Source of the DNA: a virus
Lineage: Duplodnaviria > Heunggongvirae > Uroviricota > Caudoviricetes
Strand: one strand, 5' to 3'
Length of the DNA: 64,000 nucleotides
Virus record (IMG/VR): IMGVR_UViG_3300021255_000108
Coordinates: 64,001 to 128,000 of that record
Numbering within the stretch: position 1 is the first letter of the stretch; each line of letters starts with the position of its first letter. The position numbers and the translations under genes were made by a program. Of this stretch, positions 1 to 64,000 are shown one piece after another. The notes under the pieces are model-generated. The model saw only the letters and a program-made list of their open reading frames with translations. It did not search any database and was not told the origin of the DNA.

Positions 1-1
1 A

Positions 2-2164
2 ATATTTTGGCTCTACCGCAGTAACAAGACAACCATTGCTATTTACATAAACTGGTTTTTTATCGTCACCTGCAGATCCACTCGTTGGTGCTTGAACTAA
101 TTTATGCCAATCTTGCCAAGTATCATTGGCTTCATAACGGTAGTATATATTTGAATTATTGCCAAAAACAAATTGTCTACGGTATTGATCATTCGAATGG
201 TTCTAAGCATATCCTCCAAAATTAACAATTATTGCACCAGAACCAGTTATTGGCATATTAGTAATTTGCCCCGATGAACTACTACTACGAGAAACATAAA
301 CTCCACTAGTGAGACTATTCAAATTATCACCATTAGTTAATACATAATCGCCATCACCATCATATTCTATCTAGAACATTTTTTTTGTGGTTTGTACAGC
401 GCCATTAGCATCAACATATATTGGCTATGACAAAGAGCCAACAGCAGTATTAACATCATTTCCAGTCGTAATGACTTTGCGCCAATATGTTGCATTTACT
501 GGTTTAACATACAATGAATGATTACTATTAAAACCTAATCGTGCCTCATAATGGCTAGCGCCATCAGGTGATGTATTGTATGCTTTAATAATTATTTCAG
601 CATTAGCATTATTGCTTGTGGCTGGCAATGTTGTATTGTCATGGTTCGCTGTTATTGCTGTCATCTACCCCATAGCCAAATCAAAAGAACCAATTGCTGT
701 ATTTGTCACTTGACCGTGCCCAACTTTTTGTGCAAGTGTTGCTTTACTAGCATTACCAGTTAAATTAGCAGTAATACCTCCCGGTACTTTCATTAAACCA
801 GTAGATGGATTTAATGTTGGAACTTTTGTCGAATCATTCCAAATAATACCATAAATATTGTCTGTATAAGAACTATTAGCATTTTTGGTTCCAATTGCGT
901 CACTTACGCTTCTACTTACTAATAATGGATAATCTTTGTTGTAATCAGTAGTTTGTCTATATACTCTCATACCATACGGTACTGTATTACTATCATAATA
1001 ATTTATTACTCTCCAAACACCGCAGTTATTAGGAGATGAACGAGAAGTACTTCCTTCAATGGGGAAAATACTATTAACAGAGCCATCTTCCTCAAATACT
1101 AACTATAAATATGTGCCAACTGGATATTGAGTATTTAATCGCTCTTTGTCATATACAACAATAGGATAATAATGTTCACCATTATCTATCGATAGATAAT
1201 TACCATAAGTATGCGGCGCAAGTGGTATTTTAATAGTAATAATATCACCATCAATAGCAGTCGCATTGGCATCAAATTTCCATAAGGCTGGTACAAAATT
1301 ATTACCATCTTGTTTTGCTGCTCGACAAGCCGCTGCTGTAGTTATCAGTCGCTAATTAATAGGTTCTCCTTCGTTCATTCTTAAACGATCTTTTAAATAC
1401 AATCTAGATAATATCATATCTGCCTATGACATATCAATAACATTAGAATCGTTAATAAAGACATTGTCAAAATTTATAGTATATGGACAAGTCGCTGCTT
1501 TATACTCACCAGTACCTGGATTTAACCAAGTACCATTTGGCGCAGTTAAATCGCTTCCATAATAGCCAAGTTGTATACCAAATGGCTGAAATCCTCCACT
1601 AAATCCACTAAACTATATTTTCTAAAATTTATTTTTAGATGAAAAAAGAATACCACCATACAAAGGAGATGTTCCATCCGAACTCATTAATAACGTACAC
1701 GGATAATAATCTATAGTACCTTTTGTAGTATAATTACCATCTTTTAAAAGCGGATTTAATCGCGCTGTGCCATATGTAAAACACCAACAAGAATTTGCGG
1801 GGCTATATTTATTAGCCATTTCAACATGTAAATGAATAGGACTTTTTAAACTATTATTACGTTTAAAATATAATTCTCCACAATTAAATTGCTAACTAAG
1901 TGCTACACTAGCGTTATCACTTAATTCACAAAAAGCAATAAAAAAGATTGAATAATCATTCTTCATTATTTCATTATCAGTAGTTTTAATAACAAAATAA
2001 TCATTAATATATCCATCAACATTAATATTACCATCAACATTAACATCACTGTCAACAGTTAAATTATTAACTACTTCTAAATCTGTTAACATTGCTGATG
2101 GCGTGTAGAGCGAACCAGTTACTCTAGCATTACCCTCTATAATTGTATCTTTTAATCGAGCCAT
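2..2164 (-). CDS. Tail fibre / receptor-binding protein (code 15, >720 aa, runs off left edge), with pyocin-knob-like segment near the edge
   Basis: Fragments 1892..2164, 1622..1819, 665..970 and 425..664 share one frame and are separated only by TAG. I found no in-frame TAA/TGA in 2-424. N-terminus MARLKDTIIEGNARVTG, GGGAGG RBS. Knob-like segment NGDNLNSLTSGVYVS...RRQFVFG...IYYRYE...WQDW. Confidence 0.85.
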
Positions 2165-2176
2165 AAGTACCCTCCC

Positions 2177-4447
2177 TTAACGCTCTACAAAATGATTGGC
2201 GCGCAAAACGCCATTTTTATATCTTTGTATATTTCCATCTTCTTCTATAAACCAATCATTAGATAATTGTCCGAATTTATCTACTGAAGTATTCTCACTG
2301 TATTGCCGCAAACTAAGACTATGAATGGTTGAACGGCAATCAGTAGAATCACTACCACTCCAGCCATTCAATATTCTTAATGCCAAATATTTGATTGGAT
2401 TGCCACTCCAATCTGTTGTTATAGTAATACTTCCATTAAATCGCTATTGTATAACGTCTTCATTTGGTTCAATATGCACAAAATAATGAGTTCCCTAATT
2501 ACCCTGAGTGGTTGTTTTATTTGCATCGTATCTTTCTACACCAAGATAAAAATTATTGCCTTTACTAACAGATATTGTGGCTTCCCAAAAAAAAGTTCCA
2601 GGTTGCACTTCAATATAATCGCTGCCAGCAGATACCTATAAACCATTAAACTATGGTATTACATCATAATTTAAAAATTTATTATGCGGATCGACAGATT
2701 TAGTTTTATAATAATTTGTCCAAGGAGTTTTTAATAAATTATTTTCTTCTTTTTCAATTAACTGCCTTGTCTATAAATTATTCTCTCTATCCATCTTAAC
2801 TACATTATTATATAATTGCGCGACGTCCTCCGCACTCAATGCGGTACAATAAACACGAGCATCTTTTAAATAAGCTTGTTTTACACCATTTTTTGACCCA
2901 CCATATCTACCAAAGCAAAATCCAAGTGGGCTTTTTGATAGGCCGCCTTCTGCCGCTGGGGAACCATATGATGTACCATCAATGTATCTATACAAGTAAT
3001 GATTGTCATAAACTGAAGTAATCATATGCCATTCATTATCAAGACAATTAACATCACTGGCTGTATCTCCAATTATACGCTGTTCATTTTCACCAACTTT
3101 TATTCCAAAACGACCGACACCAGAAGCCTATACTCCAACTTCATAATCAGTACTTCCTGTCCCGTCACTGATTATAGTCTAATTTACTTTAGTACTACCT
3201 TTAAACCAAATGCTTGTTGTTACACCTTCAGAAAAATAAGCTAAATTATTAGGAGTATATATTCTATCATTATTGCCATCTAATAAATATACACATTCTC
3301 CATTAAATTGTATATCACCATTAATGACGCCATTATTTCCATATCCAGAACTGTCTACAACAATTGGATCATTATAAGGCACCCATCCAGTAGCAATTGC
3401 ACCTTTTTCTAATTTTACCGCACTAACTGTTGTTTTACGGTCTCCAGAATCAGGTTTCGGCAGACTATATATTCTAAATTCTGGCTTTCGTATTATATCT
3501 TTATCATTATTGTCTTTCTCAAATGCTGGTGCGGTAAATGTTTTTACTAAATAATCTGCGTGCCCACTTGTTTGCTCCAAATTTAACCAACGAGCTACAG
3601 ACTGATCTTCCCAATAAGTTCCTAATATAAACTATGTTTTGCCAGCTGCATCATATACATCAGCATCCCATATCTATGTAGTATATTCTTCACCTGGTAC
3701 GAGATTTTCAGTTAAATCATACCAATACGCAGGAGCACCGCCAATATTAATTTGTTTTGGCTTAGGCTTAATCATGTTGGGTGCGGGATCATCAAATTTA
3801 TAATGTAAAATTAACCCCTATGATAATTCTTTTATCTAAGATTTAGACAAACATTCATCATATAGTCTAAAATCGTTGTATCTAAAATCGGCCCAACTAC
3901 CAGTGCGCGATGTACACGTTGCATCATTGCTTCTACCATTTATCATTACATTTAGTTTACCTTCTGGCTAATTCTAATAAGTTGTTGAAACTGTTGTATT
4001 ACCAATTAGTTCACCATTTAAATACAATGATAAAATGGGTTTTTTATAAGTCGCGGCAACATGATACCACGTATCTTTAATACAAGTTGTAGTTACAGTA
4101 ATAATGCCATTGCTACCATTTATACCAATGTTTAATTTATTTATATTTCTAAAACTAAAATAAATCTATGTATCTGTTGCAGTCGTGTTATTTTTACAAA
4201 ATATAATAGCATTACCACTTGTAGGTGCCAAACTTCCAGCGCCTTTTATCCAAGTCGCCACAGTCCATTCATTTCCTAAAATTTCTTCGTCTAAATGATA
4301 ACCTAATGAACCGTTTGCGCATCCAGCACCAATCTTCCCGATATCTTCAAATGCTATATTTCCATAAGTTAAATTTTCTTTAGGAAGCTAAAGTGTTCCT
4401 TGATTATGCTTGTCTTCTGTAAATGGATACCAAAGCAATAAACTCAT
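2177..4447 (-). CDS. LamG/concanavalin-A-like lectin-domain tail protein, paralog 2 (code 15, 756 aa)
   Basis: ATG at 4447 with AGGAGG RBS. Joins 3179..3580, 2771..3025 and 2177..2386 in frame and ends at TAA. Motifs MSLLLWYPFTEDKHNQG, WYHVAATY, DFRLYDECLS, GLILHYKFDD, DARVYCTALSAEDV are LamG-like. Confidence 0.8.
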
Positions 4448-4477
4448 TTAACTTCCTCCTTCTTTAAATATATCTAT

Positions 4478-9549: not shown

Positions 9550-11475
9550 TTAATATTCATAAAAGCAATTACTCTCTATGGACCTATCATCTTTGATTGC
9601 GGCAACAGCATCTTCAACAAAATCATCTGCTAAAGCAATGCCTGCCTACGTAATACTTGTGGTGTCATGTAAAGAATTGCTTAATTCTCTTGAATAAAAA
9701 TTTTGTTTATCATCGATAGAAGCGGATGTTTGGTACAGTTCTTTTATATCATCGGCAGAAAGAGCTGTACAATAAATACGAAAGTCACTAATATATCCAG
9801 TATATGGAACTCCAATTGCAGAAACTCCAACCCCACGAGATTTAGAACCAAGAACTAAATCAGTACAATCAACCATCATATTACCAGCATTAATTGTACC
9901 AATAGGAGTTAAATTTTCATAAATAGTTCCAATTGTACCATTACAACTGATAGTTAATAGCGCCCATTTATTAATCGTTAATTTATTAATACTCTTAGAA
10001 CCACTTTCAACTTTAAACCAAATTCTACCAGCGTTTGGCTAAGCAGCGAATTTTTTATCTGCGTCAGCGCCAGTATTTTTACTTAAACAATAAATTGTTT
10101 CGTATTCTGTTGGATTAGCACTTTTATAATACCAACAACTTACAGTCCAAGTATTAACAGGTAAATTAAAATTTGTATATTTAATATAGCTAGAATTAGA
10201 AAAAAGAGTAGAAACATCATATTTGGCGCTATTTTGATCAATTGTTAAATTGTTAACTGCTATACCATGATGTCCATAGCCAGAACAATCTTCAATAATA
10301 TTTGTGGAAAAATTATAGTCCTCTGGCGCGCTAGAATATATAGTAGCTTTATCTCCAATTTCTAATTTTATATTTTTTATTTGTACTGATTTATTAGTAT
10401 AATTCCAAATATAAATACCAAACCAATCTCCACCACCGCCATTATAAGCGTTTCTAAAAGAAGAATCAGAAATATTCGCTACTGTAGCACTATATCTTTT
10501 CCACTCTGAAGTAATCTAGTTAACAGCTAGATAAATAGTAGTGCGTTCTAATCTTCTTGTAGAATACCCCGTGGCATTAGGACCAGAAGCTTTTCGAACA
10601 AAACAAATACTAAAGCCTGAACCATCTGTATAATTAAAGTCATCAGAACGGATATCAGCAGAAATAGTTAAAGTTTTTCCTTGAACATCAATCCATGGAA
10701 TAGTAGGAGAATCTATATCACTCCAGGCTTTTGCTCCTTCTTTATATGTCACAATATTATTATCTTTTGTCCATCTACTGCTTAAATGCCAATTAGCAAA
10801 ATTATAAGTACCTAATAACAAATTACGACCGCCACATCCATTATTATCCAATTTATAATGTAATATTAATCCTTTAGCAATTTCTTTTACTTCTTTTTCA
10901 GAAAGAGCGTGATCATATAATCTCCAATCATTCATCCAACCATCTAAATTATTACCATCAGCAACAGTAGCACTCTACTAACTCGCACCAATAGTCGCCC
11001 ACGTACTCGATGTTGTAGTTGGAGCTGGCGCACTCGTAACCGAACCAACAAGCACCCCATTTAAATAAATTTTTCTATATTGACCACGTTTATATATAAA
11101 AGCAATATGAAACCAAGCATTAGTAGGGAATTTAGTTAATGGATTACAATCCCATCTTGCACCAGTATCAAAATAGATATGTCCAGTCTACATTAGAAAC
11201 AATGATATTCCAGTACTATTAACAACAGTCCTATCAGAAAAAACACAAGATGGTACATTAGAATTAAATTTTACCCAAGCTGTTATACTAAATTCCTAAA
11301 CAGAATTGTTTAATACTGGCTTATTTAATTTAATAAAGCTATTGGCAAATTTATAACAAGATCCTATTTTTCCACTTGTAGCTTCTGTTATATTATTACC
11401 AGTAGCAATTATACTTCCATCTAATCCCTAATTGCGCAAATCGCCATTTAAAGGTAGCCAAACTCTTAAGCTCAT
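9550..11475 (-). CDS. LamG/concanavalin-A-like lectin-domain tail protein, paralog 1 (code 15, 641 aa)
   Basis: ATG at 11475 with GAGGTG RBS: MSLRVWLPLNGDLRN(Q)G. Joins 10516..10935 and 9646..9879. Motifs DWRLYDHALS, GLILHYKLDN, DFRIYCTALSADDI match gene 2177..4447. Confidence 0.85.
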
Positions 11476-15388: not shown

Positions 15389-17365
15389 TTATTCACCTAA
15401 GTCAGTTTGTCCTTGATATTGAGTTAATTCATCAGTTATAGAGACAACTGGACTCTAAACACGATAAAGTGGTAAAGTTTCGCCTTTGTATTCTGGTACG
15501 TCATCAAAGACAACTTCAGAAATTTCAACACGATAGTTACCAGAACGAGTTACCTGATATTTAGAATTATTCAATGATAATCCATTTGCACCGCCCTGCG
15601 CAACGACGCTCCAACCATAACTTGCCGCACCAAAATCAGAACGATACCATACATAAGAAACTTTATGTGCTGGATTGCGATCTGGATCATTAATAGAAGC
15701 AGTGAACATATGCGCGGCTTCGTCATAATTAATAGTAACCTTTGCCCCTACTTCAGAGAACCGACGAGGTGGAGTTCTTACATCAGCAATATTCATTTTC
15801 TTTTCATCTGTTTGCGCGCCATTGCGTGCCGCAGAAACTCCAACTAAATATTTGCCTTCAACAGTAGGAATATAAGTAACATCATTAGCACCTTCAACTG
15901 CTTCTGGTTCTGTATATGTAACAGCACCATCTTCATCAATAGTAGGCTTTTGAACATACCATTGATAAGAAAGTTTATCACCAGGAATTAATGTATTAAC
16001 AACCTCACCATTGGCGTTATAGCTATAATGGCTTGGTATTTGTATAGACAAAACAGTTTTGCGCGCGAATGGTTCATTATCCGCTTCAGAGTGATAAACA
16101 TTACCAGTATATCCATAACGAGGTGAATTGGAATAAGGATCAGGCTCAGTAGGACGAGGTACTTCAATTATACCGGTATATACATAACGAGTACGTTTAT
16201 CAGAACCAATAGTATTACCAATTTGGACAGTATAACGACCAACTTTGTTTATTGTATAAGTGCTCTTGGCCGCAATGTCATAACCTGTTCCAGTAAGTGC
16301 AACTGTCTTAATTGGGGGATTTTCATCATCTGGATCAATAGTGACTTGACCAAGACCATCCATACCATCAACTTGATGATACCAGACGAAAGCCAATTCT
16401 TGATTTTGATTTGCAGAGTTAGGAGACGCAGCCTTAACTTCAAGATTGAGTTCATACTTCTTTTCTGTCCAAGCTTCTTTATAGCCATCTTCTCCTTCAG
16501 TGCCCTCTGCAGGATGCTCAATTGTTACTTCTTCTAAGTCTTGATAACCATCAACAAGTCCTTGAAGTACTATTGGAGCAGGAGATTCAATACTATTAAC
16601 AACACCAGAATAAACAGGACGGCTATAGATTAAATCTTCCCAAGAATCTGCTTTATAGTTGTCTTGTAAAAGATTAAAATTAAGTGTTGTTTTAATAACA
16701 CAACTCTGAATTTTAGTAGAAAAATTGTACTGAATTTCTCCATTTGTTACGCCAAGAAAACGGACTGTAAATTGAATAGTGCCAGCTTCAGCAGAAACTT
16801 TATCAGCAAGTGGCCATCCAAAATAAATATAGTCTTCATCACAAGTCATGGCGTAAGCTAAATCAACGCCCTTACCACCACCATCTGTTTTAGCAGCCGC
16901 TGGATTATACCATTCAATATAAGTATGATATCCAGTAAAAGTATTAGTAGACGGCGTACCATCATTTTTAAAGTTGTAAAAATCAGTTAAATCAAAGAAA
17001 CGAGGCATTTTAAACCAAACAATTTCTGCTAATTTATCACCCTGAATGGTTAAACCATTTTCTTTAAATTGTTTTGGCACAATAATTTCACGAGTGTCAG
17101 GGTTAATTTCAAACACTGGCTCTGTAAGAGGGAGGCGCAATAAGTTATATGTATTAGCGTTTAAACTCTCTCTCATTTGATGCATTAGATCATCAAGAGC
17201 ATAAAGGTAAGAGTGAATATCATTAACCGGTTTCCCAGAGTATTCAGACATCCTTTTGAATAACTCATAATATTCTCTTTCATCCGGCTTTAGCTCCGCG
17301 ATAGCATCAGCAGAAACATTTGGGTCAAATAAACTTGCGTCAAAACGATAGTTATTTGTTATCAT
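15389..17365 (-). CDS. BppU-like N-terminal domain plus Ig/PKD-like repeats, baseplate/fibre anchor (code 15, 658 aa)
   Basis: Supplied 636-aa ORF extended through one TAG (15455) to TAA at 15389. Motifs FEINPDTREIIVP...AEIVWFKMPRFFD...AGTIQFTVRF, then Ig-like segments LSYQWY...GKYLVGV and VSYVWY...GNYRVEI. Confidence 0.7.
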
Positions 17366-26042: not shown

Positions 26043-26083
26043 TAAAAATCTCCTTTCTCTCATTAAAAAACAGGATTTTTATA

Positions 26084-28664: not shown

Positions 28665-28727
28665 TTATTCTCAACTCCTTCGGTCTTCATTCTTTTATAA
28701 CTCAAAAATGTCAATAAACAATTTAAG

Positions 28728-28749: not shown

Positions 28750-28755
28750 ATATAA

Positions 28756-29238: not shown

Positions 29239-29251
29239 ATTATAACTCTCC

Positions 29252-30127: not shown

Positions 30128-30133
30128 AATTAA

Positions 30134-47300: not shown

Positions 47301-48548
47301 TCCTTTTGCGCCTTCTTGATCTGCGCGCAATAAAGTATATTTAGCTAAAACTTGTAATAACTAACTTAAAGTATCCGCATACTTTTCACCGACTGTAATA
47401 ATTAAACGAGCTTTAGCGCCTTCATATGAACTACCATGACTTGCTCCATTTTCTTCGAGCAAATTTAAATAGTTTTCAGGAAAATTAGTAGTATCTTGAT
47501 TCTACCAATCAAAATCCGCACTCTATACAATATCTTCAATATCATCTATTAATGTTAATATAGTTTCTTGTCTATTTCCATTATACAATTCATCAATCGC
47601 GGCATTTTTCTCTTCTTCTGTCAATGAATTATCAGACAAAATTTCATTCTATCTCTATAAAAAATCATCTGAACTTAATTCATCTGTTATTTGAGACTAA
47701 TAATCTGATGTTGTATCGTCTAAAGAATTTAAAAATTTATCATAATCATCAGAAAAAGATCCAATAGTATTACCGCCAATCATTGACATAATTTTGTCAT
47801 ATTCATCAGCATTAATAAATTTATTATTAGCACCATATGATTTTATCCCAAGTAAAACTTGCTATTTTACTTGCTCAACTGCCTAACTCAATTGTAGAAT
47901 ATTTTCAAATGGCTGTGCTAATAATTCTTCTATAATAGTTAAATATGACTTCTAGCTAAATCTCGGGTACTAATCTGATATAGTAAAACCAGTAGCAACT
48001 GGTGTCACATACTTTGGTATATCACTTTGATAATCATTAATTAATTTTGTAATTTTCTAATAAGTAGCACGTAATTCCTATATTTTAGCATTAATATTAA
48101 TAATTTCATTGTTATAATCATTACTATCATTGTCAATCCCATGTAATGGATGATTGGCAATATAGCCGTGAACCTAAGTAGCTTTTTCATCTTGATAAGT
48201 TAAATCTTCTAGTGATAAAAAATCATCAAAAGGCATCTTAAATGTGAAAGTGCGCTCAGGCTCCTTCTCAATATCTACTTTACGACCAACTATGTGCTTT
48301 TGTAACGAAAAATCTCCTTTCGGCACATGCACATATACTGTATCGCCTTCATAATATCTTGAATTATCATTGGAATAGGCATCAAATATCGCGTCTTCAA
48401 ATTCTACTTTATAAATACCATCTGCTTTATATTTTGTAGACACAACACGAGCTTCTATCGTTTTATCATATTGGAATTTCTATATCTTTGCGTTCATAAC
48501 AATAGCCATAGAATCAAATAGATTTTTAGAAACTTCATTGCTCGCCAA
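41325..48548 (-). CDS. Giant baseplate hub / central tail spike protein (code 15, 2407 aa)
   Basis: TTG start at 48548 after AAGGAG. Ten supplied fragments share one frame, and I read several of the gaps (including 46937-48174) without finding TAA/TGA. N-terminal YDKTIEARVV...YKV, beta-repeats G.IG.W.I, and C-terminal SDFNNHTHH...TSTPN resembling the HxH metal-binding tip of phage spikes. Confidence 0.75.
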
Positions 48549-48622: not shown

Positions 48623-48654
48623 AAAAAATCGGGGTCTTATATTAAGACCCCGAT
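48623..48654 (-). terminator. Intrinsic terminator overlapping the tape-measure stop
   Basis: ATCGGGGTCTTA-ATA-TAAGACCCCGAT followed by TTTTT. Confidence 0.75.
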
Positions 48655-51600
48655 GAATAAGCATACTAAGATGCTAAATTGGTAAGTTGATTAAATGCAT
48701 CAATAATATCTTGCGCGGATTGTATATTATCAAAACTCGCGTTAATATTAACAACTTGTGACAATGCATCACCATTTGTATTACCATTAATAACATTCGG
48801 ATTAACTCCTCTAGAAATTAATCCTAATAAATTAGACATAGCACCGCTATCAATTAAATTCCACAAATTGGAAGTTGATATATCATACTCTGACATTGTG
48901 GTATTATGTAATCTACCTAAAGCATTGGCAGAACCCTCAAATCGATCCTCTGTAAAATTAGTAACGTTTTTATTATTATATAATGCATTAAGTGCCGCAG
49001 TTGTACCCATTTCAGACGGACGATAAATAGCACCATTATTATAGTACCTATCATTAATACTATCTATGTCTGCTAATGACCGTTGTAGACCTTGCATCTT
49101 ATTTAATAATTGCTCATAATTGCCCACTGTTGTTTCCAATGCGGCATTATGCTTAACCCAACTATCAGTAGCGGAAGAAATATTCTTTAAACTATCTCCT
49201 AAAATCTAATCCAAAGTTTTAATATCTTCTGCGGCTTTTTCATTTGTTTTATTATAGACAGAAACTGAATTTTCCATCGTACCCCAGGTTAATCCAGTCT
49301 CACCGCCAACTTTATCAATATCGTGAGAATAGCCACCAATAGCCTCATCTAACTATTGCCGCAAGGTAGTACGAATATATTCGACATATCCACTACTATC
49401 CTACATCAATTGCTACATCATGCCGTGAATTTGATCCTGAACTAAACCAGTATTTTCTATAATTGTTTGTCCATAATACTCTTGAATATATCCTTGATTT
49501 TCTAATAATTGCTCTTGCGCGCGCAAGCCTTGTTCTTGAATATATTCCATTTGCGCCAAATGCTACTCGGTTAATGTTTCCGCTTGACGATTGCGCTCTT
49601 CAAGAGATAAAGTATCATTATCAAGAATCTCTCTCAATTCAGATTGATAATTCTATTTAGATTCAATCATCTATTGTACTAAATCATTTTGATGCTCATA
49701 AGCCAATTCATTAATTTGTTGTAAAACATCTTCAAAGTTCTAACGTGCTTCACCGACGTCATCTTCATTAGCAGTATACTGATATCCGTAATTACCATTC
49801 TCATCTCTTGTTAAACGTACAGTAGATTTTGCATTCTAAGTATCTTCTAAATCCTACATCGCTAACGCCATTTTATATTGTAATTCGTTCATTTCAATAT
49901 CATATTCTGTTAAACGATTTTTTTCTGCATATGCATTAATTTCATTCTATAATGCTTTTAAGCGCTCTTTGCTTGTCGCAGTTGTGGAATCTATTAAAGA
50001 ATCTTCAATCTAACGATTAATCTTAGATACTTCATATAATTCTTTGGCAGTAGATACATACCAACCCTATTGTTCATTCCAATAATTAAAATCTTGCGCA
50101 ACGTCGTCAAATGATTTTATTAAATTACCATTCGCATCAACTAATGATTTAAATGCTAAATCACTGGCTTTTATAATAGCATCAATGACATTCATAAATT
50201 TCTCTTTTGCGTCATCAAGCGTTTGTTGTGTCTTTTGCGCTAAATCATCTTCCGCATTAACAATATGCTCTTCAACACTATCATATTGCGCTTTAAGAGT
50301 TTCTGTCCAGCCAGAATCTTCAATCTCTTTTACAATTGCCGCACGAGAAGCATATAGCGTATCCAAATAATCTCTTGCCGCACGCGCAGTTAATAAACTT
50401 GAACGATAACTTGTATCATACATTGAATTAAGTTCAGCAAAATTCTGTCCTCTACCCATTAATTGTTGCATTTCAATGTAACTTTGCATCATATTACGGG
50501 TATGTTCTATTTTATCCGTATATTTCTATTGTTTTTCTTCTGCTAAACTTAATGTATTTTCATAATATTCTTCAATTTCTTTCTTTAAATCTTGTATGCT
50601 TTCTAAATACTCTAAAGTTTTATCTTGTAAATCAGCTAAACCATCACTGTAATCTTGATCATTCAACCGGCCTTCAGCATAGCCTTTTTGTAATTCTTGA
50701 TAAGCTTTACCAACTGCCGCAAGACTACTCTCATAGTCTCCCATCTTCATCATAGAGACTTCCATAGATTCATCTTGCTTACTTAATACTTCAGACCATT
50801 TACTAATATAATAATCTAATTTCTATAAATCTGTATCATTTAAATCAGCTGCAATTTCTAATTTATATTGAACACCTTCAAGTAAAATTTCAGAAATCTT
50901 ATTCTAATTTTCTAATATATCGTTTTGAATAGTGTCAACCAAATCTAAAGCTTCTTCATAATTTTCTAAAGCTTTCATTCGGCTCTCATATTCTTCATCA
51001 ATTCGTTTATCTGTTTCATCATCATCACTGGCATCAACAGAAGCATTATACCAATCAATCTATTTACGAATATACTCATCATAATTAACAGTACCATCTG
51101 GGTTAAATGTAGCTCCATACTATGTTAATTCAGCACGGTCAGAAGCAAGATAAGCAGCAGCTTCGGCATAATATTCTTCTTGAAGTTTATTTTGTTTTTC
51201 TAAAGCTTCAATTTCGGCATTTAAGGCTTTTAAATGGCGACCTCCATAAGCACGGTCTTTAATTTTATCAATGCGATCAAGAATATGTTCTTGTTGCTCA
51301 AGTTTGTCACGAACTTCGTGATAACGTTCGCCTTCTTTATTAACACGTTTATGTTCTTTTTTAGTATGCTATTTTCCGCCTCCGCCACCTCCTCCGCTGC
51401 TTTTAGGAGTAGAAGCTCCACCGTGTGTCACACCACGTCCGTTATAATGAGCGCCTTTTATTGTATACCATACATATTCCTGTCCACCATCAGTTTCATT
51501 AACAGTCGCACTAATAGGGACATCTTGTATTTCATAAGTACCATTGCTTTGTAATACCGGCACCTAATAATGACCACCTTCGATAATAACTTCTTTATCT

Positions 51601-54600
51601 TTTGGTGGTACAGGCACACGATGTTCTTCAATCTCTGCTTCAACACCTAATGAACTAAGTGCCGCAGTGGCTTCTGCAGCAGTGCTAGCGCATTGATTAA
51701 CCAACGCTTCACACTAAGAAATGAAATTTTCATCTCTTATTTCAGCACCAACTTCTAATGACTACCCATCTAACCAAGACTACATACTACTTATTAAATC
51801 AGACATCTATCCTTGTACTGCATTGCCAGCTTCATCTGTTCCAATTATAATCTAATCAGTACCCTCTTTTAAACTTAATATATCATCAGCCGCAGCAGCA
51901 GTTAATTGATCCCAAGCTTTTTCATCACCTTTAATAGCTTTTTCTAATAATTTAGCATTTTTGGTGCTAGTTAAAAAGGCTTCACTTAATTCTTGTGATT
52001 CCTATGGTGTCAATTCTAATAAATCAGCATAAATTTCACGAACATCATCTAACGTTTTATTATATTCATTACTATATTTTCTATTTTCACCTAAATTTTT
52101 TGAAATCTATTGCAAAGTCTTTTGATATTTACTCATTTTACTTTGAGCATTATCAAAACCTTTAGACTATCTATAAAGAACTGCTGCATTATACTCTAAT
52201 TCTTCAGTAGTTTTACCGGTAATTAATCCAGCTGCTTTTACTGTTTTCATATAATTATGCAATTCTTGTTCTGTTAAATCAGTAAAAGCTTGACGATACT
52301 CATCAACTTTACTTCTATCAAACATATACTCTGAATCATTAGCTTGCGCACCAGCTTCATACATAGCTTGTTTAATTTGTTCAACTGTTTGATATCCCAT
52401 ATTTTTTGCCCATAGCGCGATTGTCTCTGGACTAAATATAGCATTCATTATATCTTCAAAACTATGTCCGTCAGCAACTTGTGCTAAATTGTTTTCATCA
52501 AAAGTAATTAATTTTTCTAGAGATATTTGTTGACCGTTTAATGTACCAGAAGTTGCCATCAATGTATTATAAGCTGCCAACGACTAATCAGAATCACCAG
52601 AGTGCTGTTTCATCATAGATAGATAATTTAAGAATGAATCTTGAGACCCCATTAAGGCAGAAGCGGTATATTCCCGCATACCACTTCTATATTTCTACAT
52701 AATTTGCTCATCAGACAAGCCACGATATTCATCTAACAAAAGTTTATTACTTTCTTCATCATAGAAAGGACGATCTGCGCCAGATAATAATCCACTTTTC
52801 TATGTCGCGCCAAAAGCTTCAAACTATAATTCTTTATAATTCGCGTCTGGGTTTCGCATATATGCTTTTGCATCTTCATATGAATATCCTTTGGTTTCCA
52901 TTAAATATCGTAAGATATTCGCCTAAGAATCTATATCGCCTTGCATATCTTTCATAATGGCGTCGCCATTTAACAAAGATTTTCTCGCATCAGCAATTGA
53001 TTTAAATGTTTTCTACCATAAGTTATAAGTATTTTTAGCAGACTCTTCATCTAATTCAAAAATCTATTTTAAAGCATTACCCCAAATATCTTCAATCTCA
53101 GCAAATGTGCTCTATGAACTATTATATAATTTAGTATAATATTTATCAATTGTTTTTTGAACTTGTACCAAATAATCATTTAATTCTTCATCAGTTAACT
53201 AATCTAAATCTGTTTTTCCACCAGGCAACTATATCATAGATTTCGCAGATTCTAATGCCCATCGTTGATTATCAGTTAAATTATTGCCTTTTAAAAATGA
53301 TAAAGTAGTCCGTCTTGATAAAGCATTAAGTTCTGGATCAACTATCATATTTGTATAAGCAAGTTTTGCATCATCTAGACCTTGATAATTTTCTATAGGG
53401 TTGTCTTTTAACCAATCCTAAAATCCTGCTCCATACCAATCTATATCAGAAAATTCTTTCTAAATGGCTTCACTTATTTTACTAGCCAAGCCTCCAACAT
53501 CTGGTTGCCACTCAGCGATACTTTCTGTTAAACCAACTTGTAAACCTTGAATAAGATATGGCGCCAATGCCATAGTTAAACGCGATGGAGATTGAATAAG
53601 TAATTCCTTTCTAAATGCATCACTAATTGTATCTCCTAAACCATTAATGTACGCGTTCCATTCAGCTTCCTATCCAGCAGCTTTTATTCCTTCTTTTAAA
53701 CCATCTATTAAAAATTGTCCGGCCTTTTTTAAATCATCATCCGCATTCTCAAAAGCTACTAAAAAATCTTGAATAAATTGCTAAGATTCATTATCATAAT
53801 TAAAAAATTGTTTACCAAATTCCTAAAATAATGGTTTACTTATTATCTATTTATCATAGAATCCTTTTTCACCTTTAAAAAACTTAGTAGCATCTATTAA
53901 TGCAGCTGGATTACCCATAGATATTTTTAATCTATCCGCACCAGGTGCTCCAATTTGCGCTGTGCCCCCACCCAATGGAGTTTTACTACCTGTCATTGAC
54001 TCCCGAACAGCTTGATTTTTTTCTTCAATCTCAATCTATTTCTTTGGAGTTGGAACCAATTCAGTATCTGGATCATACTCTTTACCATCTGGACCAATTA
54101 ATATAATTTTAATTTTTTTCTCAGCATTATCAGTTACATTTTTTAATAATTCTTGGCTCGCAGCATCAGGTTCTTCATATGCTAGTTTAATAGACATATT
54201 AGAAGGTATTTTATTAATTAATGTTACAACATTTTCAGGTAATTCACCAGAAATTTCATTGCCATCTTTATCTGTAAAACGAATAGAAATTTTACCATTT
54301 TCATCGTTAGTAAAGACACGTTCAAACTCTTGTTCTATCTAACCTAATGAATGACCTTCTTCATCAGTAATTTCCATTTGTATAGTATAAGAATTTAAAC
54401 CATTATTAGTAATTTTGGCAATCCAATTATTTAATTTAAGATCAACCTAACCATCTTTATCTACATCGATTTGTAAATTATTATTATCTAAATCAACTTT
54501 CCATTTTTCTATTTTTTTATCTATAACTTCTTCATTTGATAATTCAACTGACATCTTTTTATCAGCCAATGCAAGATTCCAAGCAGCAAGAGTAAGACTA

Positions 54601-57600
54601 ATAGGAACATCATTTCCTAAAGTAACAGACATCGTTTTATCAGCAAGGTCTGCTTTCCATCCAGAAATAGTTTCACTAACTGTCTCACCAGTTGGCAAAG
54701 TGACGGCCATTTCTTTATTTTCTAAATCGATATTCCAACTCTAAATTTTGGTATCAACAACAGAACCATCTATTTTAGAAATAGTCACAGACTAATTATC
54801 TAAATCCCATCCAATAATAGTATCTTTAACTGCATCGTGCCCAATACCTAAATTAACAATCTGATCTTGCCATTTTTCAGTTACTGGAGTTACTTCATCT
54901 TTACCTAAACTTAAATTAATTTTCTAAATCGTTTCAGTTGAAGTAATTTTATCTACATCTTTCATTTGCGCCTAATCAGCAGTAATACCCATTAATGCCG
55001 CTGTAGTAGACGCCATTACGCCAGCCCAAATATCTTCTTTATTGCCTTTATTGGCATTACGCATATCATCTAAAATCTGCGCAACGTGCTCGGCTTCTAA
55101 TCCAGCCTCTAATAAAGTCTATCTTAAAGTTTCTAAATCAGAAAAAGATAAATCTCCTAAATTTGTTAAATGATTTGAAATTAATGACAATGCTTTTTCT
55201 GCATTATCTCGCATATTATCCCATTCATCATTAATCTCTTGCATCTAAGTCTTAAAATTAGTTAATTCAATATTATTAATAGTCTATTCTAACTATTTGG
55301 CCTCGTGCTCTAACTGTACTAATTCATCAGATTCTCCAATGCCTTCTTCTTGTATCTTTGCTTTTATCTATGCAATATTCTGATTGATTAAATCTAATTG
55401 TACTTGTTTTCTTTCAAGCTCAGACATATTTAACCAATCATCTAAAGATATACCTTTAGCATCTTTAAACAATTGTAAGATATCTTCATAAGCATCTTTC
55501 CATTTAGATACATCATTAATATCCATTTCAGATAATTTTTGAGTGCTGGCTATTAACTAATCAATTGTATTTTCACTGTTACTTTCTTTTACTATATCAT
55601 CAACCTTAATATTAGCGCCAAGATATCTCTGCGCCCAATATTGTGCATTCTTCCAGCCACCAAGCTACATCGTTTTTTGATATAGTTCACTAGTAGTTTT
55701 ACCATTATCAGCATTTTCCTAATCAGCTAAAAATGCTTCTTGTGTATAGTTACTCAAAGCTTCAAAATCAAATTTACTTAAATCTTCACCAACTGCTCTT
55801 TCAAAATCATCTACAAAATGCTCATAAGCTTCAGTTATAGCTTGACTTAAACCACTATTTTCTGCATTTGTTTTTAAACTATCTGATTGCTAAACAATAT
55901 TTTCAATCCAATCTGAAACAATTGTTCTCTATGCATCAGTGCTCATTTTCTTAAAGTCTTCAAATGTAGTACCGCTCATAGCAGCTAAAGTATCATTGGA
56001 AAAAATAAACTAAGAGGCGAAATTACTAACATTAAAACCAGCACCACGATTATTATACGCACTAATAGCACTTTGAGAAGTACTCCAAGCATCAAGAGCT
56101 GTAGTGTCTATATTTCTTCTACCACCATTTAACCAATAACCCAAACTAAAATATGGATTATTAAGCTATTCATCCCTTAAACCAGTTAAAATAGAAGTAG
56201 ATCGTCCCATCTCTTTTAACTGTTTCGTGTAATCTGCTCTTTTATTTGTTGCGCTGGATGCAGAAGCAGATAATCTTGCTCCTTCCGCTCCCATACCGGC
56301 CAATGTGGAATCAATAATAGAACCAAGTACTTGCTAACCTAATTGATAAGCTTCACTATTCGATTCTTCAGTAATTCCTTTTTCATTTAAGATATTGTCT
56401 ATCCATTCCTATCTTTTTTGTGAATTATACCCTTTTAAATCATTTGCCGTTAGCTTATTAGCTTCTGACTATCCTCTTGATGTTAATTCACTCTGTAAAG
56501 CGGACTACACTGGATTTACCGCAGTTTCTACTGCACTACGAGTTTTACTTAAACTATCTACAACAGTTTGAAGATAGGATGCATATTCTGTACCAAAATT
56601 ATTCTATATTTCTTCTTCAAGTTTTTTAATACCAGTTAAAAAAGTTGTTAAACTATCAAAATCAGTGCCCAGTTCTATAGCACCATTTGAATTAATTGTT
56701 GCTCCTAAAATATTTTCTATCCAAGCAGGATCATAAGAATTATGACCGGTATAAGAGGCTCCAAGAACAGCTTCATAATTAATTGCTTTATTAATTTTAT
56801 ATCTGTCATCACCAGCTTTATCAAAAAAGCCGGCTTGTAAACCATAAGTTCCTAACGCCGTATATAAAGTGGAAGCGGTCGCATCACGAGCCTAAGCACT
56901 TAAATCTCGTCCAGAAATCTCTGCTTGAGCTAATTGTGCTGCTATAGTTTTTTTAATCTATTCTTCTAATTGTTGATAATTACCACTTAAAGCTAAAACA
57001 TTGGCTCCTTGAATGCCTAAAGCATTAGCTACAGTTAATAATGAATCATTAAATTCATTCTAAGAAATTGTTCCATCTGCCAACTATTTAGTTAAATCAT
57101 TATATAAAGATTGCTATGTTTGAGTATTCTAAATTTTAGATTGTAATTCGCTAGTATCATTTGTAATTTTATCAGTTGTTTCTTTTGCCTTTTCTGCAGC
57201 TTTTTCAATACTAGCAGTATACTAACTAATTATTAAACCCAACCCAGCGCCTGCTATCGCAATACCACCAGCCCAAGGTCCACCAGTTAAAAATGCCTAT
57301 GCTACACTCGTTGCTGTAGTAGCAATACCAGTTAATCCTTGTACAACATTACCTGCGTTAAACGCAGCCATAGCACTATTTAATTGATTAAATGCCGCAA
57401 CACCTGAAGTAATACCAGTAACCGCAGTCTTTGCTGCTTCACCAATTGCCTCAAATTGGACTCTTGGATCTACCGACCTATTATCTGTGCTATAACGCTC
57501 ACGATAAAATAAACGTTCTGCAGCCACAGATTTTTTCATCTATTCTATTAAATAATTATTTTCTTCTTTTCCTAAGCCTTCAATACCTTTATTTTTCCAT

Positions 57601-59771
57601 CTATCAGCTACCTCTGCAGAAGATTTACCATTATATGAAAAATTAGTAATGTCCCAATTTTTGTCTGAAAAATAACGTTTATGAATGGCATTAAAAGCGT
57701 CCTAATAAGCCTTCTGTTCGTTTTGATCTCCACTATTATTATACTAATTGGCTAAAGAAGCCATTTCTTCTTTTAGACCAATTACTCGCATAGCTCTAAA
57801 AACGTCCTATGCCTACTAATTATCACGCATTAAATCCATAGGAGTAAGCTGGAGAGTGTCATTCCAATCATAAAGAGTATCATAAGCTATCCGAGCCTAA
57901 TTTGTAGAATTACGAACATTTTTTAATAATAACTGATTGTCAAACGATAAATTTTTGCCCTATCGCATCAATCTAATTTGTTCATCATATATATTAGCCT
58001 ACTAATTAGACCCATAGGCTACTAAATACGCATAAGGATTTTCTGCTTCCAAATTAGAAGTATCTCTTAAAGCAGTTCGAGCAGCAGCGATATTAGAAAT
58101 TTGCTATCTTTCTTCTGCATTTGGCATTCTACCCATCAAGAATTGACCAATAGTATAGCCTCCACTCATTGGCTATCCATTACCTTGTTTAGTAAACGCC
58201 TAACCAAATCCGACTATACTAGCCGCAGCTTTACTTACACCATTAACAATCTAATTAGAAAACGTCCTTGTCATCAAAGTACTAACAGTAGCTAAAATTC
58301 CAGGCAAACCACCAAAGGCTTTAACTAATCCAGTTACGCCTTTGGTCATTTCAGTCATTGCATTAGTAAAGGAAATAACTGCCTCATCGTCAATTAATGC
58401 GCCCCAAAGGTCTTCTAAAGCAGCACGACTACGCGCACTTGCCGCTTCCCAACCTTGAGCATAAATTTCTTGTTGTTCTTGTAACGCACCAGCAGAATTT
58501 TGCGCAGTAATCATATTCTTTTGATATTTATCAAAATTATCAAAGAATGCCATAATCTATGTGTATTGACGAGCACCACCAATGGTTTGCGCCAATGCTG
58601 CTTTTTGGCCTTTGCTTAAAGTCTACCATTTACCGCCTAATTCATCAATGACGATTCCCATATCGCGCAATTGTCCAGTAGCATCTAAGATATTTACACC
58701 AACTGTGCGCAATGCAGATGAATATTTATTTAAGTCAACACCATCTTCAAGTGTTTCACCTAATTTTAAACCACCAATACGACTTAAAATTGTATTCCAA
58801 GCCGTACCAACAGTTTCTGGTGCTTGTCTTGTAACGGAAGCAGAAGTTGCAACAATAGCAGACATTTGCTGCATTGATACGCCAACAGTATTCGCAGTAG
58901 ATGCTACTTTCTACATAGCAGTTGCCATCTCTTCCATAGAAGATGCGGTCGTAGCACCTAATTTAGCCATTACATCAACGACAGACTCTAACTGATCCGC
59001 ACCAACCTAATAAGAGTTCCAAACCGCGGTAAGCATTTCAGACATTTCTTTAGCAGAAGCAGTAAATGCTACGTTTGCCGCTTTAACAGTCGTGGCTGCT
59101 TTTTTAGCTGCCATTTCTGCGCTATCACCCTATTGATAATAAATTAATGCAGCATTTGCATATTCTTTAGTAGTTGTTGACAATTCTTGCGCTGCTTTAT
59201 TAGCACTTGCCGCAAATTTTGCCATATCATTAACAGACTGTCCAGTAACTATACGAATATTATTTAAAGTTTCATTTAAATCTTTCGCATAATTAACAGC
59301 AGAACTCATTGAGGATTCTAATCCGTGTATAATATTAGAAGAAATTTGCCATTTAAAACTATTTGATAAAGTAGTGGCAAAGTTTCCTAATAAACCAGTT
59401 AATCGTTTAACTGGAATTTCTGCTGTCGATAAAGAGCGCGCTAATTGTGATACAGCGGCATTACCTAAACCACCAGTACTTCTTAATTGTGTAATTAACT
59501 AATTAAGATTTGTGTTTGACTACATCAAACTTTTATTAAAGGCAGTAAAATTTAATCTACCTGTATCGACATTAATCGCCGCATTTAAACTTGACTATAA
59601 TTGCTATGCAGCTTTTGCTGCATTATTTAAATCTATATCTAAACCTAATTTTTTATTATTTGCTACAGTTATATCATTTAAAGCTTTCTGTAGCTCTGCT
59701 ATAGATTTTCTCGCCTAACTTGTATCGGCGGAAATGCCTAATACATACTAAATTTTATTATTAGCCGCCAT
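48642..59771 (-). CDS. Phage tail tape measure protein, TP901-type core (code 15, 3709 aa)
   Basis: AAAGGAG RBS and ATG at 59771. Nine supplied fragments share one frame, and several kb of gaps were read without TAA/TGA. Core AVNYAKDLNETLNNIRIVTG...ETVGTAWNTILSRIG...LRDMGIVIDELGGKW. C-terminus AFNQLTNLAS(Q)YAY. Confidence 0.9.
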
Positions 59772-59801
59772 CTACAATTACTCCTTTCACTCTATAAAAA
59801 C

Positions 59802-59870: not shown

Positions 59871-60389
59871 TTAACCTAATTTATCCAGCACTTCTTTAAC
59901 TAATCCGACCTTATCTGGTTGATCTAAAGTTTGCATTAATTCATCAACATTCATTTTTGTCGCATCATATTCAGCACTTGCTGTACGCATCATACCGAGG
60001 AACGAAGTATTATATTTAACAATTTGCTCAATAGATTTTTCAACCATCTCTTGCAAATCTTGAATTTCTGTTTTAGGAATATAATTTAATAATGTGTCTA
60101 AATTATTTACAATAATAGCATCATATGTTTTGCTGGCATTCTCTATCATTTTATCTGTAATAGAAATATCAGTATATGCTTTGAGTGTGAGAATAGTAAA
60201 ATAAATATTTAATCTAATAGGACTGGCAAAACCAGTATCATCAAAAACATAACTCGCTATTTGTTCTATTAATTTAGATTTTTTATCTATAGGAAGGTAT
60301 GGTTGAACATTAACTTCCTGTCCATTAATTTTAGCTATAATTGCTTTAATCTCCTTAATTGGAGTAACTTTTGTAAAAGATACAGACAT
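59871..60389 (-). CDS. Putative tail assembly chaperone (172 aa)
   Basis: The true start is probably the ATG at 60389 (AAAAAGGAG RBS). TAG-free, predicted helical, and lies immediately upstream of the tape measure. The function is inferred from position. Confidence 0.6.
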   Translation of the reverse strand: MSVSFTKVTPIKEIKAIIAKINGQEVNVQPYLPIDKKSKLIEQIASYVFDDTGFASPIRLNIYFTILTLKAYTDISITDKMIENASKTYDAIIVNNLDTLLNYIPKTEIQDLQEMVEKSIEQIVKYNTSFLGMMRTASAEYDATKMNVDELMQTLDQPDKVGLVKEVLDKLG

Positions 60390-60427
60390 ATGTATATTGC
60401 TCCTTTTTCTCTTTTGTTGACACAAAT

Positions 60428-60456
60428 ATTTTACCAAAAATTTTTTAATCTGTCAA
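60428..60456 (-). promoter_or_regulatory. Near-consensus sigma70/sigmaA promoter
   Basis: TTGACA (60451-60456), 17 nt, then TAAAAT (60428-60433) with extended TG. Confidence 0.75.
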
Positions 60457-61916
60457 ATTAATTCATTTAATCCAATGCGTAAAGATAAACTGGCTTTCAT
60501 CATACTTGTATCATACATTAAGCGCATTATCTTATTACTACGTTGTTGAGCTAAAGCGCGCATAGACTATGATCTATTATTAGACAATAACTCATCGAAA
60601 ATTTGTGAATGCTACTATGCTATTGATGGCTAGAATTTAGCTAAATCAGATTGTGCGGGATTTTCTAAATAATTAGCAAAACTTTTTGGATAATTGCTTT
60701 TTCCAAATGAAGCACTACCATTTAAAATCGCTGTTAACACTTTAGGCATTGTATACACCTAATTATTTATTACTAAAAAATAGGCAAAGTCAGAACTAGT
60801 TAAATTGCCCATCATAGAAGATAAAATCATAGAAGTATAAGCCCATTTATATACTTGATTTAAATTCCAAGATGGATGCTAATATATCTCACCAATTGTG
60901 CCATCATTATTCTATACAATTTTTGCCGCTCTACCGGAATTGGCATATAAATTATAAAAATGAGTTAAATCACTATCTGCGATATCTGCCGTATCTAAAA
61001 TTTGACCAACTGAAGAGGATTTTACGTGAACTGTGTAATATGCCTATTGTGTAGCATTATCTACCTATATTTGACCTGTACGCTTTAACGTAATACCTGG
61101 TAAACTAACTGTAATAGTCCCACTCTCATTAGTTAAAACTGCACTAATATCAGAAGTCATATTTTTATAACCTACTTTTTTCCCCGAAGCATTGGTTGTA
61201 TAACCACTTCTCGCACCAGTACCAATAGCCGACGCTTTTATTCCACCAAGTAAATTCTTTTCAAATAACTCATTTAATACATTAGTAAAAAGACCTTCAG
61301 ATAAAAATCCACTTGCTGCCATAATGCCAGCTGTTGCTCCACTATACATATGCTTTAAATCTGTGGCCAACTTTTGATCCATTCTTCCCTATCGCAAATA
61401 TGATTTAATAGACTGAGCTACTGATGACTATTTACCAGACATTAATTCATTATATTTCTTGTCTAATGTCGTTTTATTATCAATATAGACCTGTCTCACC
61501 TATGCATATTTAGAATTTTTAACTGTATTATAAGAATCTTCAAAACTAGTAATTATTTCTTCTATTTTATCTATTTCAGCTTGTGCTTTCTATAATGCAC
61601 TTGATAATTCCGATGCAGAATTTGCATTTAAAGCAGCATCAATTGCAGACTCAAAATTTGTTCTAACAATTTCAGGTAAATTAGATTGCATTTCATTGGC
61701 TGCTAATTTAATTGTTGATTCCATTTGATCTAAAACTTTAGATGAACCAGTCAAAATTCCTAATTTTTGTTGTAATTCTGTTTCATATTTTTCTACTAAA
61801 GCATCAATTTGACTATACATATACTAAAATTGCTACTGTATTTTTGCTTCTCCAAAAGCTGCATTTATATTTCCAGACTCTCTATAAATATTATGTATAT
61901 AATAATTCGCAGGCAC
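60453..61916 (-). CDS. Hypothetical protein (code 15, 487 aa)
   Basis: GAGGTG RBS and GTG at 61916. Joins 61590..61820 and 61065..61382 and ends at TGA 60453. No recognised motif. Confidence 0.7.
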
Positions 61917-63010: not shown

Positions 63011-63028
63011 AGGCTTTTTTCCTCCTTA

Positions 63029-63784
63029 TTAATTATGAAGATCTTTCATCCAATCATCTGGCTTACTATCTGGCTTACCGCCCGCCAGACGAGATCTAAT
63101 ATCTAAATCCCACCCGACATACAAGCCATAACGCTCGACTAAATCATATAACTGATAAACAGTTAAATTTAAGCAATCATTTAGACTCATAGACTGTAAG
63201 CCAATAGTGAGAATAGAAACATATCTTGATAGAACTCCATCTGCGGAATATCCTTTATCTTGGGCAGCTCTTGATCTACCCCTCATAAGCTTTGCCGCAA
63301 TTTCAGCCGCTTTTTTATTTTTAGGCTTAAAACTTGAGTTCTATCCACCTGTTGTATTATTTAAACCAGCAACATTATTTAATACTTCTTTAATAGCATC
63401 AAAATTTCGTTCATCCAATGTAAAATTATTTTTTGTTTCTGGGTTACTAAAAAATAAACCGTTAGGTAAAAACTATATTTTATACCCAGGAAACAATAAA
63501 GCCAAAACCGATATTAAATCGTTTTGGCGTTTTGCTTTTTCTGGATTTCGCGGGTCCAGCATCAACATCATAAATATCTAAAAATTGTTCATTTTAGATA
63601 GTTGATTTTTGCCCTGTGGATTTGATGCTATTAATATCTCTTTATTAAAACAAAAAGACTAAAGAATAGAAAAATATATCGCTTCTCCCAAATAAGAAAT
63701 TTCACGAATTGTAGGTTGATGTATAGCCGACTGTATTTCTACAACCGGTATATCAGTACCAGCCATTAACTATAATTTATTCAT
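63029..63784 (-). CDS. Tail/neck morphogenesis protein (code 15, 251 aa)
   Basis: ATG at 63784 in an ATGA overlap. MNKL(Q)LMAGTDIP...IHQPTIREISYLGE continues in frame into 63029..63286. Confidence 0.7.
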
Positions 63785-63999
63785 TTTACCAATGGATCAA
63801 TTTTATCTTCAATACCATTAATTGCCCTATATATTAATGTTAATCCCATTAATTGATCATTTAATACCAAATCATTACAAGTAATAAAGTTTAATTCACC
63901 AATACCTGCTAATTTAGCATTATTCATCATCGCATCAATTTCTCCAACAATTTTATATGGGCGCAATTGAAAATTACCTAAATTCCAATGGTCTGGATG
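63781..63999 (-). CDS. Putative tail completion/terminator protein, C-terminal part (5' end beyond the window)
   Basis: The frame is open to the right edge: HLDQWNLGNFQLRPYKIVGEIDAMMNNAKLAGIGELNF. Ends at TGA. The function is inferred from position. Confidence 0.5.
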   Translation of the reverse strand, partial: HPDHWNLGNFQLRPYKIVGEIDAMMNNAKLAGIGELNFITCNDLVLNDQLMGLTLIYRAINGIEDKIDPLVK

Positions 64000-64000
64000 A

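Follow-up and report, generated by a model that had tools for sequence, protein, structure and literature searches.

How does a phage express its tail genes when most of their reading frames are interrupted by TAG triplets? The question is raised by a tail-gene block in the virus record IMGVR_UViG_3300021255_000108, a single contig of 165,734 bp with a 102-bp repeat at its ends and a completeness rating of 100%. The stretch analyzed, called the window throughout, comprises 64,000 nucleotides (bases 64,001-128,000 of the record), and positions are those of the window unless genome positions are named. An earlier note, made from the letters of the window, had proposed that TAG is recoded there as glutamine. 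The reading that we favor, with a probability of about 0.92, is that the window holds the tail and baseplate section of the late genes of an SPbeta-like siphovirus, complete at 165.7 kb, in whose late block UAG would be decoded as Gln by the phage's own tRNA(CUA) and TAA and TGA would be the sole stops. The TAG-poor replication genes of this phage would be translatable by its host, probably a member of the Bacillota, and the recoding of the late genes may act as a timing gate.

TAG as a sense codon in the tail genes

Translated with code 11, the window yields 15 open reading frames (ORFs) of at least 150 amino acids (aa), the longest being 636 aa. With TAG read as Gln there are 26, including minus-strand ORFs of 3,711, 2,641 and 2,407 aa, and the share of the window that lies in ORFs of 300 aa or more climbs from 8% to 89%. 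Treating TGA as sense gave 8% coverage and treating TAA as sense gave 15%, and the gain is therefore specific to TAG. Frame 0 of the called window genes holds 330 TAG, no TAA and no TGA in 20,207 codons; in the other two frames, every stop triplet occurs 194-1,326 times. The genes of the window use TAG as sense, and TAA and TGA keep their stop function.

The gene layout that results is the one that the earlier note had described. A simple gene call that takes TAG as sense fills the minus strand of the window with 31 genes, every one of them ending at TAA or TGA, with intergenic gaps that are mostly 3-100 nt. The ATGA overlaps that it had claimed at 17362-17365 and 63781-63784 are both present (at the latter, the ATG of the 251-aa YomV-like gene overlaps the TGA of the gene upstream), and a third lies at 35205-35208. 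Its sizes for the largest genes, 3709, 2634 and 2407 aa, agree with ours when counted from ATG (the first ATG for 3,709 and the second for 2,634), and the re-calling that it had named as a check produced a clear density gain. The further claim that the largest genes are invisible to code 11 holds for code-11 pipelines, which split the largest of them, encoding the tape measure protein, into 104 pieces of at most 179 aa. It does not hold for public protein collections (ENA and Logan assemblies), where exact translations of several window genes with TAG as Gln already exist, including the 3,709-aa tape measure and a 756-aa LamG protein. The JGI/IMG entries in the cluster of the tape measure are fragments of 45-141 aa from the same gene, so the fragmentation has happened in practice.

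The fragmentation under code 11 could also be explained if the element were decaying or mis-assembled, its in-frame TAGs having arisen by nonsense mutation or assembly error and its long ORFs being spurious. Such an origin is opposed by the restriction of in-frame stops to one triplet of the three, and by the completeness of the record with its terminal repeats. Among 43 relatives (49-99% portal identity), the head genes of 35 show the same in-frame TAG pattern and those of eight are free of it, with TGA or TAA used by none. Furthermore, in independent assemblies whose portal is 97-99% identical to that of this phage, the TAGs are kept at 34 of 34 and 16 of 16 orthologous sites. For practical purposes these conservation data refute decay or mis-assembly, to which we attach almost no probability.

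The amino acid inserted at TAG and the suppressor tRNA

What TAG encodes was examined on DNA, by tallying the sense codons of relatives that stand opposite the TAGs of this phage and by comparing how well the substitution profile of each residue fits those codons. Window genes aligned with three relatives (28-62% identity) gave Gln at 64 of 276 positions, ahead of Glu by 106 log-likelihood units. Head genes aligned with nine related loci gave Gln at 99 of 251, where Glu was again the next residue and the margin was 256. The third tally used TAG-free relatives together with cultured Enterococcus, Brevibacillus, Staphylococcus and Lactococcus phages, and gave Gln at 81 of 185 (CAA 61, CAG 20) with a margin of 156. 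These tallies replaced a first one, in which portal TAG columns were compared with database proteins (Gln in 724 of 1,560 cells), and which was partly circular since the proteins of the relatives had themselves been called with TAG as Gln. TAG is common to 134 orthologous positions in independent assemblies, and TAGs of relatives stand opposite CAA or CAG of this phage 143 times. By these alignments TAG means Gln in this phage. The codon-to-amino-acid inference that the earlier note had called for thus agrees with its proposal, as do the coding density and the genome-encoded tRNA(CUA) described below.

The earlier note had read the Gln identity from internal paralogs, and here its alignments are as stated, although paralog evidence taken alone is thin and the homolog evidence is strong. 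The first pair involves two LamG-domain proteins, the 641-aa one (9550..11475) being an N-terminal paralog of the 756-aa one (2177-4447): MSLRVWLPLNGDLRN[TAG]G, with its TAG at 11428, reads as claimed against MSLLLWYPFTEDKHNQG, with CAA at 4400. In the second pair, LK[TAG]II of the gene at 29690..30127 does align with LNQLL, from the C-terminal end of the product of the 639-aa gene (30407-32326), but a neighboring TAG aligns with Lys. The 2,641-aa protein carries V[TAG]GTSS[TAG]GYPRRNFK at residue 862, and both Gln positions of the QGTSS motif are indeed TAG; only the first, however, is a conserved Gln (in three relatives), and opposite the second stand E, M or L. No CotH hit to this protein was obtained from Pfam at E<=1e-3.

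The search for a tRNA with anticodon CUA, another check named by the earlier note, succeeded: one such gene is among the 18 tRNA genes found in the genome by ARAGORN. It closes the tRNA array and heads the plus-strand block, at genome positions 10,186-10,280, with the window starting 53.7 kb further on. It scores 55 bits as a tRNA (Rfam), and in U1-A72, G73 and its D-arm it resembles the phage's own tRNA-Gln(UUG). The search for release factors and a glutaminyl-tRNA synthetase (GlnRS) found neither, as no RF-1, PCRF or GlnRS-type domain is encoded in the genome according to a domain search. Two further tRNA-like sequences (L001:4298-4370 and L001:2380-2439) score 44 and 37 bits with Rfam and were not called by ARAGORN.

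The tRNA(CUA) bears on a different explanation, namely that TAG is sense but specifies another residue, most plausibly serine through seryl-tRNA synthetase (SerRS), an enzyme that identifies its tRNAs by a long variable arm and not by the anticodon, or a mixture of residues. A serine identity was considered for its long arm: the tRNA measures 95 nt owing to a variable arm of ~24 nt, and its discriminator is G73. Ser also occurs in 7-9% of aligned TAG columns. The alignments led us to reject it, with Gln being the maximum-likelihood residue in each of the three tallies (by 106-256 units) and Ser ranking fourth or lower. Columns 292 and 395 of the portal, invariant for Gln, are TAG here and CAA or CAG in phAss-1 and in cultured standard-code Enterococcus, Staphylococcus, Lactococcus and Brevibacillus phages. 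In addition, the tRNA has U1-A72, as in tRNA-Gln, and not the G1-C72 of tRNA-Ser. A meaning other than Gln seems to us very improbable.

The long arm itself is shared with phAss-1 (91 nt) and with two relatives of this phage (90 and 88 nt). Its loop is CUCUGAC here, CUCUGAA in phAss-1, CUUUGAA in relative G002 and a UUGAA-containing sequence in relative G001, and in all four sequences it is a copy of the Gln anticodon loop (CUG or UUG); the stems differ in sequence (CC/GG versus GC/GC or GCG/CGC). One idea, which we regard as rather unlikely, is that the extra hairpin could keep tRNA(CUA) recognizable to the Gln-charging system of the host, giving near-complete decoding of UAG as Gln without a phage release factor or synthetase. 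If true, the variable-arm hairpin would be an undescribed tRNA identity device. In relative G001 (165.7 kb), the tRNA(CUA) adjoins a tRNA-like gene with anticodon UUA (L033:765-836; 162,842-162,913), by its anticodon an ochre suppressor, and no in-frame TAA was seen in the head genes of this relative.

The reach of the recoding and its possible cost

Most of the recoding falls in the late block of 47 genes on the minus strand (genome 58.4-141.5 kb), where TAG makes up 35% of Gln codons and 40 of the 47 genes contain it. The plus-strand block (10.3-58.3 kb, 48 genes) is a replication and nucleotide-metabolism module in which TAG accounts for at most 7% of Gln codons, with several of its TAGs lying near naive gene starts or ends. 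Its TAG-free genes include those for the DNA polymerase (1,301 aa, 48 Gln codons), NrdD (anaerobic ribonucleotide reductase), two topoisomerase II subunits, and DnaB-like and Dda-like helicases. The earlier note had taken the whole module to be recoded. This is right for the late block, including the window, but three window genes lack TAG, and the recoding extends beyond the window to the rest of the block and to a few plus-strand genes. Recoded structural and lysis genes combined with variable replication genes are the published pattern in TAG-recoded gut phages (bioRxiv 10.1101/2021.08.26.457843), and the split between late and replication genes seen here is like that in the clades of Borges et al.

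The presence of in-frame TAG in a few non-late genes would also be expected if the host itself read TAG as Gln and the phage merely shared its code, with no code switch. The distribution of TAG argues against this, since among Gln codons it is about five times rarer in the replication block than in the late block and is absent from all those of the DNA polymerase. The phage carries a tRNA(CUA) of its own, and wherever a related portal occurs in a cultured phage, the host is a standard-code member of the Bacillota. To our knowledge, no bacterial lineage with TAG as Gln has been established. A recoded host is, in our estimate, very improbable; the TAG-poor replication module fits a standard-code host.

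If this tRNA(CUA) of the phage decodes UAG, genes for replication and nucleotide metabolism would be translated by the unmodified standard-code host, and UAG in the late block would be read as Gln. As the suppressor tRNA accumulated, it would outcompete release factor 1 (RF1) of the host and the late genes would become translatable, such that the recoding would serve as a timing gate. The gate is suggested by the TAG split and by the published model of Borges et al. A translational gate on the late sigma factor, which has TAGs at codon 34 and codon 358/360, was also considered. It was rejected because the first lies at the N-terminal edge of the PHROG match (residues 34-355), possibly upstream of the true start, and the other lies near the end.

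Several points weigh against decoding as Gln by tRNA(CUA) with a late gate. A type-II-like long variable arm combined with G73, as in this tRNA, could attract SerRS by textbook identity rules. The assignment of TAG to Gln in this phage is deduced from sequence. No factor that would remove the competition from RF1 was found, yet one ORF has 103 TAGs. Finally, the split between early and late genes is not clean, as some plus-strand genes need TAG read-through: in-frame TAGs occur in genes for a RecJ-like exonuclease (one, internal), a Holliday-junction resolvase (six), a GIY-YIG homing endonuclease (eight) and a helix-turn-helix regulator (eight).

The GIY-YIG gene lies at genome 38416-39396 (L002:18416-19396), and an HNH endonuclease gene with three TAGs sits between the genes for TerL and the portal (genome 135541-135897; L005:7541-7897). 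These selfish endonuclease genes are written in the phage's own code. Two other plus-strand genes (genome 11118-11600 and 19473-19760) have TAG one codon before their TAA stop. Here TAG may be the original stop, backed up by TAA, which would limit read-through when the suppressor is active.

Some late genes avoid TAG altogether. Within the window these are the tail tube, YomO-like and 128-aa genes (Table 1), and outside it the genes for the candidate major capsid protein (a YonB ortholog), its upstream neighbor (possibly a scaffold) and a YonG-like protein. At the TAG share of the block, the chance of finding no TAG is 0.2-1.3% for each of the larger TAG-free genes (P = 0.002-0.013, the tail tube having P = 0.013). 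The tube, capsid and capsid-upstream genes use CAG for 9 of 10, 10 of 12 and 8 of 13 Gln codons, respectively; the late-block average of CAG among CAA plus CAG is ~19%. The TAG-free tube and capsid genes suggest that suppression has a cost, and that the most abundant virion proteins avoid TAG for this reason. At the other extreme, the 103 TAGs of the tape measure gene would allow a calculated full-length yield of ~36% at 99% read-through per codon and of ~0.5% at 95%, and late decoding must therefore be very efficient, ~99% or better per codon.

The phage, its tail genes and its relatives

The features of the window are collected in Table 1. GC content is 35%, and GC skew is negative throughout the window, as expected with all of its genes on the minus strand. 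The GC content is 39% at 28001-32000 versus 30-35% in the rest of the window; this segment covers small fibre-like genes (28756-30403), in which in-frame TAGs are still present.

Table 1. Genes of the window, and TAG-free late genes elsewhere in the genome (window positions unless marked as genome)
Feature	Position	Strand	TAG codons and other details
N-terminal 721 codons of a 1,279-aa gene	1..2164	-	10 TAG in window, 13 in total; 3' end before window start
LamG-domain virion protein, 756 aa	2177..4447	-	15 TAG; Pfam Laminin_G_3, 9e-31
Three structural or tail-fibre-like genes: 362, 619, 599 aa	4526..9449	-	6, 9, 4 TAG
LamG-domain virion protein, 641 aa	9550..11475	-	8 TAG; Pfam Laminin_G_3, 3e-35
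Three genes: 213, 800, 267 aa	11485..15364	-	6, 5, 4 TAG
658-aa and 152-aa genes	15389..17820	-	1 and 3 TAG; linked by ATGA overlap 17362-17365
Virion protein, 2,641 aa (2,634 aa from second ATG)	18138..26063	-	24 TAG; phrog_14959, 5e-64
Four genes: 543, 311, 173, 140 aa	26084..29674	-	7, 2, 3, 1 TAG
Fibre-like gene, 145 aa	29690..30127	-	3 TAG
Five tail or baseplate genes: 639, 956, 117, 754, 1,028 aa	30407..40909	-	12, 12, 4, 14, 18 TAG
128-aa gene	40913..41299	-	0 TAG; phrog_1401
2,407-aa protein directly downstream of tape measure	41325..48548	-	43 TAG
Tape measure protein	48642..59777	-	103 TAG; 3,711 codons from TTG, 3,709 aa from first ATG
YomO-like gene, 188 aa, just upstream of tape measure	59871..60437	-	0 TAG
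487-aa gene	60453..61916	-	15 TAG; densest in window, 31 per 1,000 codons
Tail tube protein, 342 aa	61982..63010	-	0 TAG; phrog_2729, 3e-58
YomV-like tail gene, 251 aa	63029..63784	-	5 TAG; phrog_4051, 8e-29; ortholog with Pfam YomV_2nd
YomW-like gene, 179 aa, 3' part	63781..64000	-	3 TAG; continues to 64320 past window; ortholog with Pfam YomW
TAG-free late genes outside window	genome 130802-131848, 131872-132636, 137640-138806		

A Pfam search of the window proteins gave almost no matches. The tape measure is recognized by PHROG families phrog_34405 (3.6e-44) and phrog_4211 (1.4e-38) and by Pfam PhageMin_Tail (1.6e-26). With this as the largest gene, the virion would be long-tailed; tails measure roughly 0.15 nm per tape-measure residue, and the 3,709-aa protein would predict a tail of ~0.55 micrometres. 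The 2,407-aa protein has no family match in PHROG or Pfam, and relatives G001-G003 align with it over 40-72% of its length at 33-39% identity. The block of five tail or baseplate genes matches the tail protein family phrog_1887 and gives a weak Pfam Sipho_tail hit; genes within it overlap by 4 nt (35205-35208) and by 8 nt (37823-37830). No related loci were found in searches with the 956-aa and 658-aa window proteins.

The family assignments that point to SPbeta, the Bacillus prophage on which these Pfam families were built, come from orthologs, where they were read from precomputed Pfam annotation; direct Pfam searches with the window's own proteins gave no such hits. In a relative with a 70%-identical portal (ENA k141_172240; L013), orthologs carry YonG_N, YonD_N, YonB, YomW, YomV_2nd, YomU_Tube and YomO. 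These orthologs are 41-73% identical to genes of this phage and lie largely in the same order, with YomW elsewhere. The tail tube ortholog (67% identical) is the one with YomU_Tube, and the YomO hit, on the ortholog of the 188-aa gene, is weak. The tape measure of this relative (L013:21477 onward) is called at 4,758 aa versus 3,709 aa here.

The portal (phrog_2739, 8e-86) has 5,777 database hits at E<=1e-10, and its lineage is common. Its best named match is phAss-1 (38.6% identity), and its cultured relatives are all phages of Bacillota: Enterococcus (33%), followed by Brevibacillus, Staphylococcus SPbeta-like (26%), Lactococcus 949-like, Bacillus and Clostridioides. By these comparisons the phage is a member of an SPbeta-like siphovirus lineage, distantly related to phAss-1, and probably infects an anaerobic gut member of the Bacillota. 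Collections of metagenome-assembled genomes (MAGs) from deer, sheep, yak, rabbit, rumen and human gut contain related contigs of 154-176 kb. The MAG bin labels were rejected as a guide to the host because they are mutually inconsistent (Lachnospiraceae, Bacilli, Mollicutes, Bacteroidales, Treponema and Methanobrevibacter). Many of the binned relatives are of whole-genome size, and may be mis-binned free phage genomes.

The nearest described system is phAss-1 (OQ749652), a siphovirus reported to read TAG as Gln, whose tape measure has 3,149 aa and which carries tRNA(CUA) genes (PMC10607447). Both it and the present phage are large siphoviruses of the gut; in both, the tape measure is giant (3,149-3,209 aa in the phAss-1 group), TAG stands for Gln in the genes for TerL, portal, tape measure and fibres, a Bacillota host is predicted, and tRNA(CUA) of the same long-arm design is present without a dedicated aminoacyl-tRNA synthetase. 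phAss-1 differs in its 136-kb genome with three tRNA(CUA), as compared to 166 kb and one. NCBI places it in the 'Caudoviricetes code 15 clade', and a Phassvirus group has been proposed, the published members of which share 80-86% nucleotide identity (PMC10607447). The portal protein identity to phAss-1 found here is far below genus-level similarity.

More broadly, the TAG-recoded clades of Borges et al., among them Agate (154 +/- 27 kb) and Sapphire, come from animal and human guts as well, recode their structural genes and their replication genes variably or not at all, and carry suppressor tRNAs. In those clades, as among the relatives of this phage (35 and eight of the 43), recoded and unrecoded forms coexist. 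Release factor 2 occurs in two TAG-recoded Agate phages and in six Lak phages (bioRxiv 10.1101/2021.08.26.457843), but not in this genome. The crAss-like code-15 phages have the same reassignment of TAG to Gln in late structural genes (PMC9523058), but they are short-tailed and infect Bacteroidota, and the recoding here is deduced from the genes. The phage is thus a TAG=Gln gut phage of the kind that the earlier note had in mind, but it is neither of the two examples that it had given. Lak megaphage genomes exceed 500 kb, and this one is complete at 165.7 kb. Crassvirales have a short tail and no tape measure; this phage has both a tape measure and a tail tube, and its portal matches only Bacillota phages and unclassified gut phages. 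With SPbeta and SPbeta-like phages it shares the Yom/Yon head and tail families, through its orthologs, but the similarity is remote and those phages use the standard code.

The recoding described here is correct but already known as a phenomenon, TAG as Gln having been described bioinformatically in gut phages and demonstrated by proteomics in crAss-like ones (Peters et al. 2022, PMC9523058). The phage provides a complete and well-resolved example of it in an SPbeta-like siphovirus lineage of gut anaerobes. In practical terms, code 11 loses about nine-tenths of the 64-kb tail module, and mining such genomes for receptor-binding or tail proteins needs code 15. The tape measure gene supplies a quantitative constraint on how completely UAG has to be suppressed at each codon. 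The coexistence within one lineage of relatives with and without in-frame TAG is useful for studying how code changes start.

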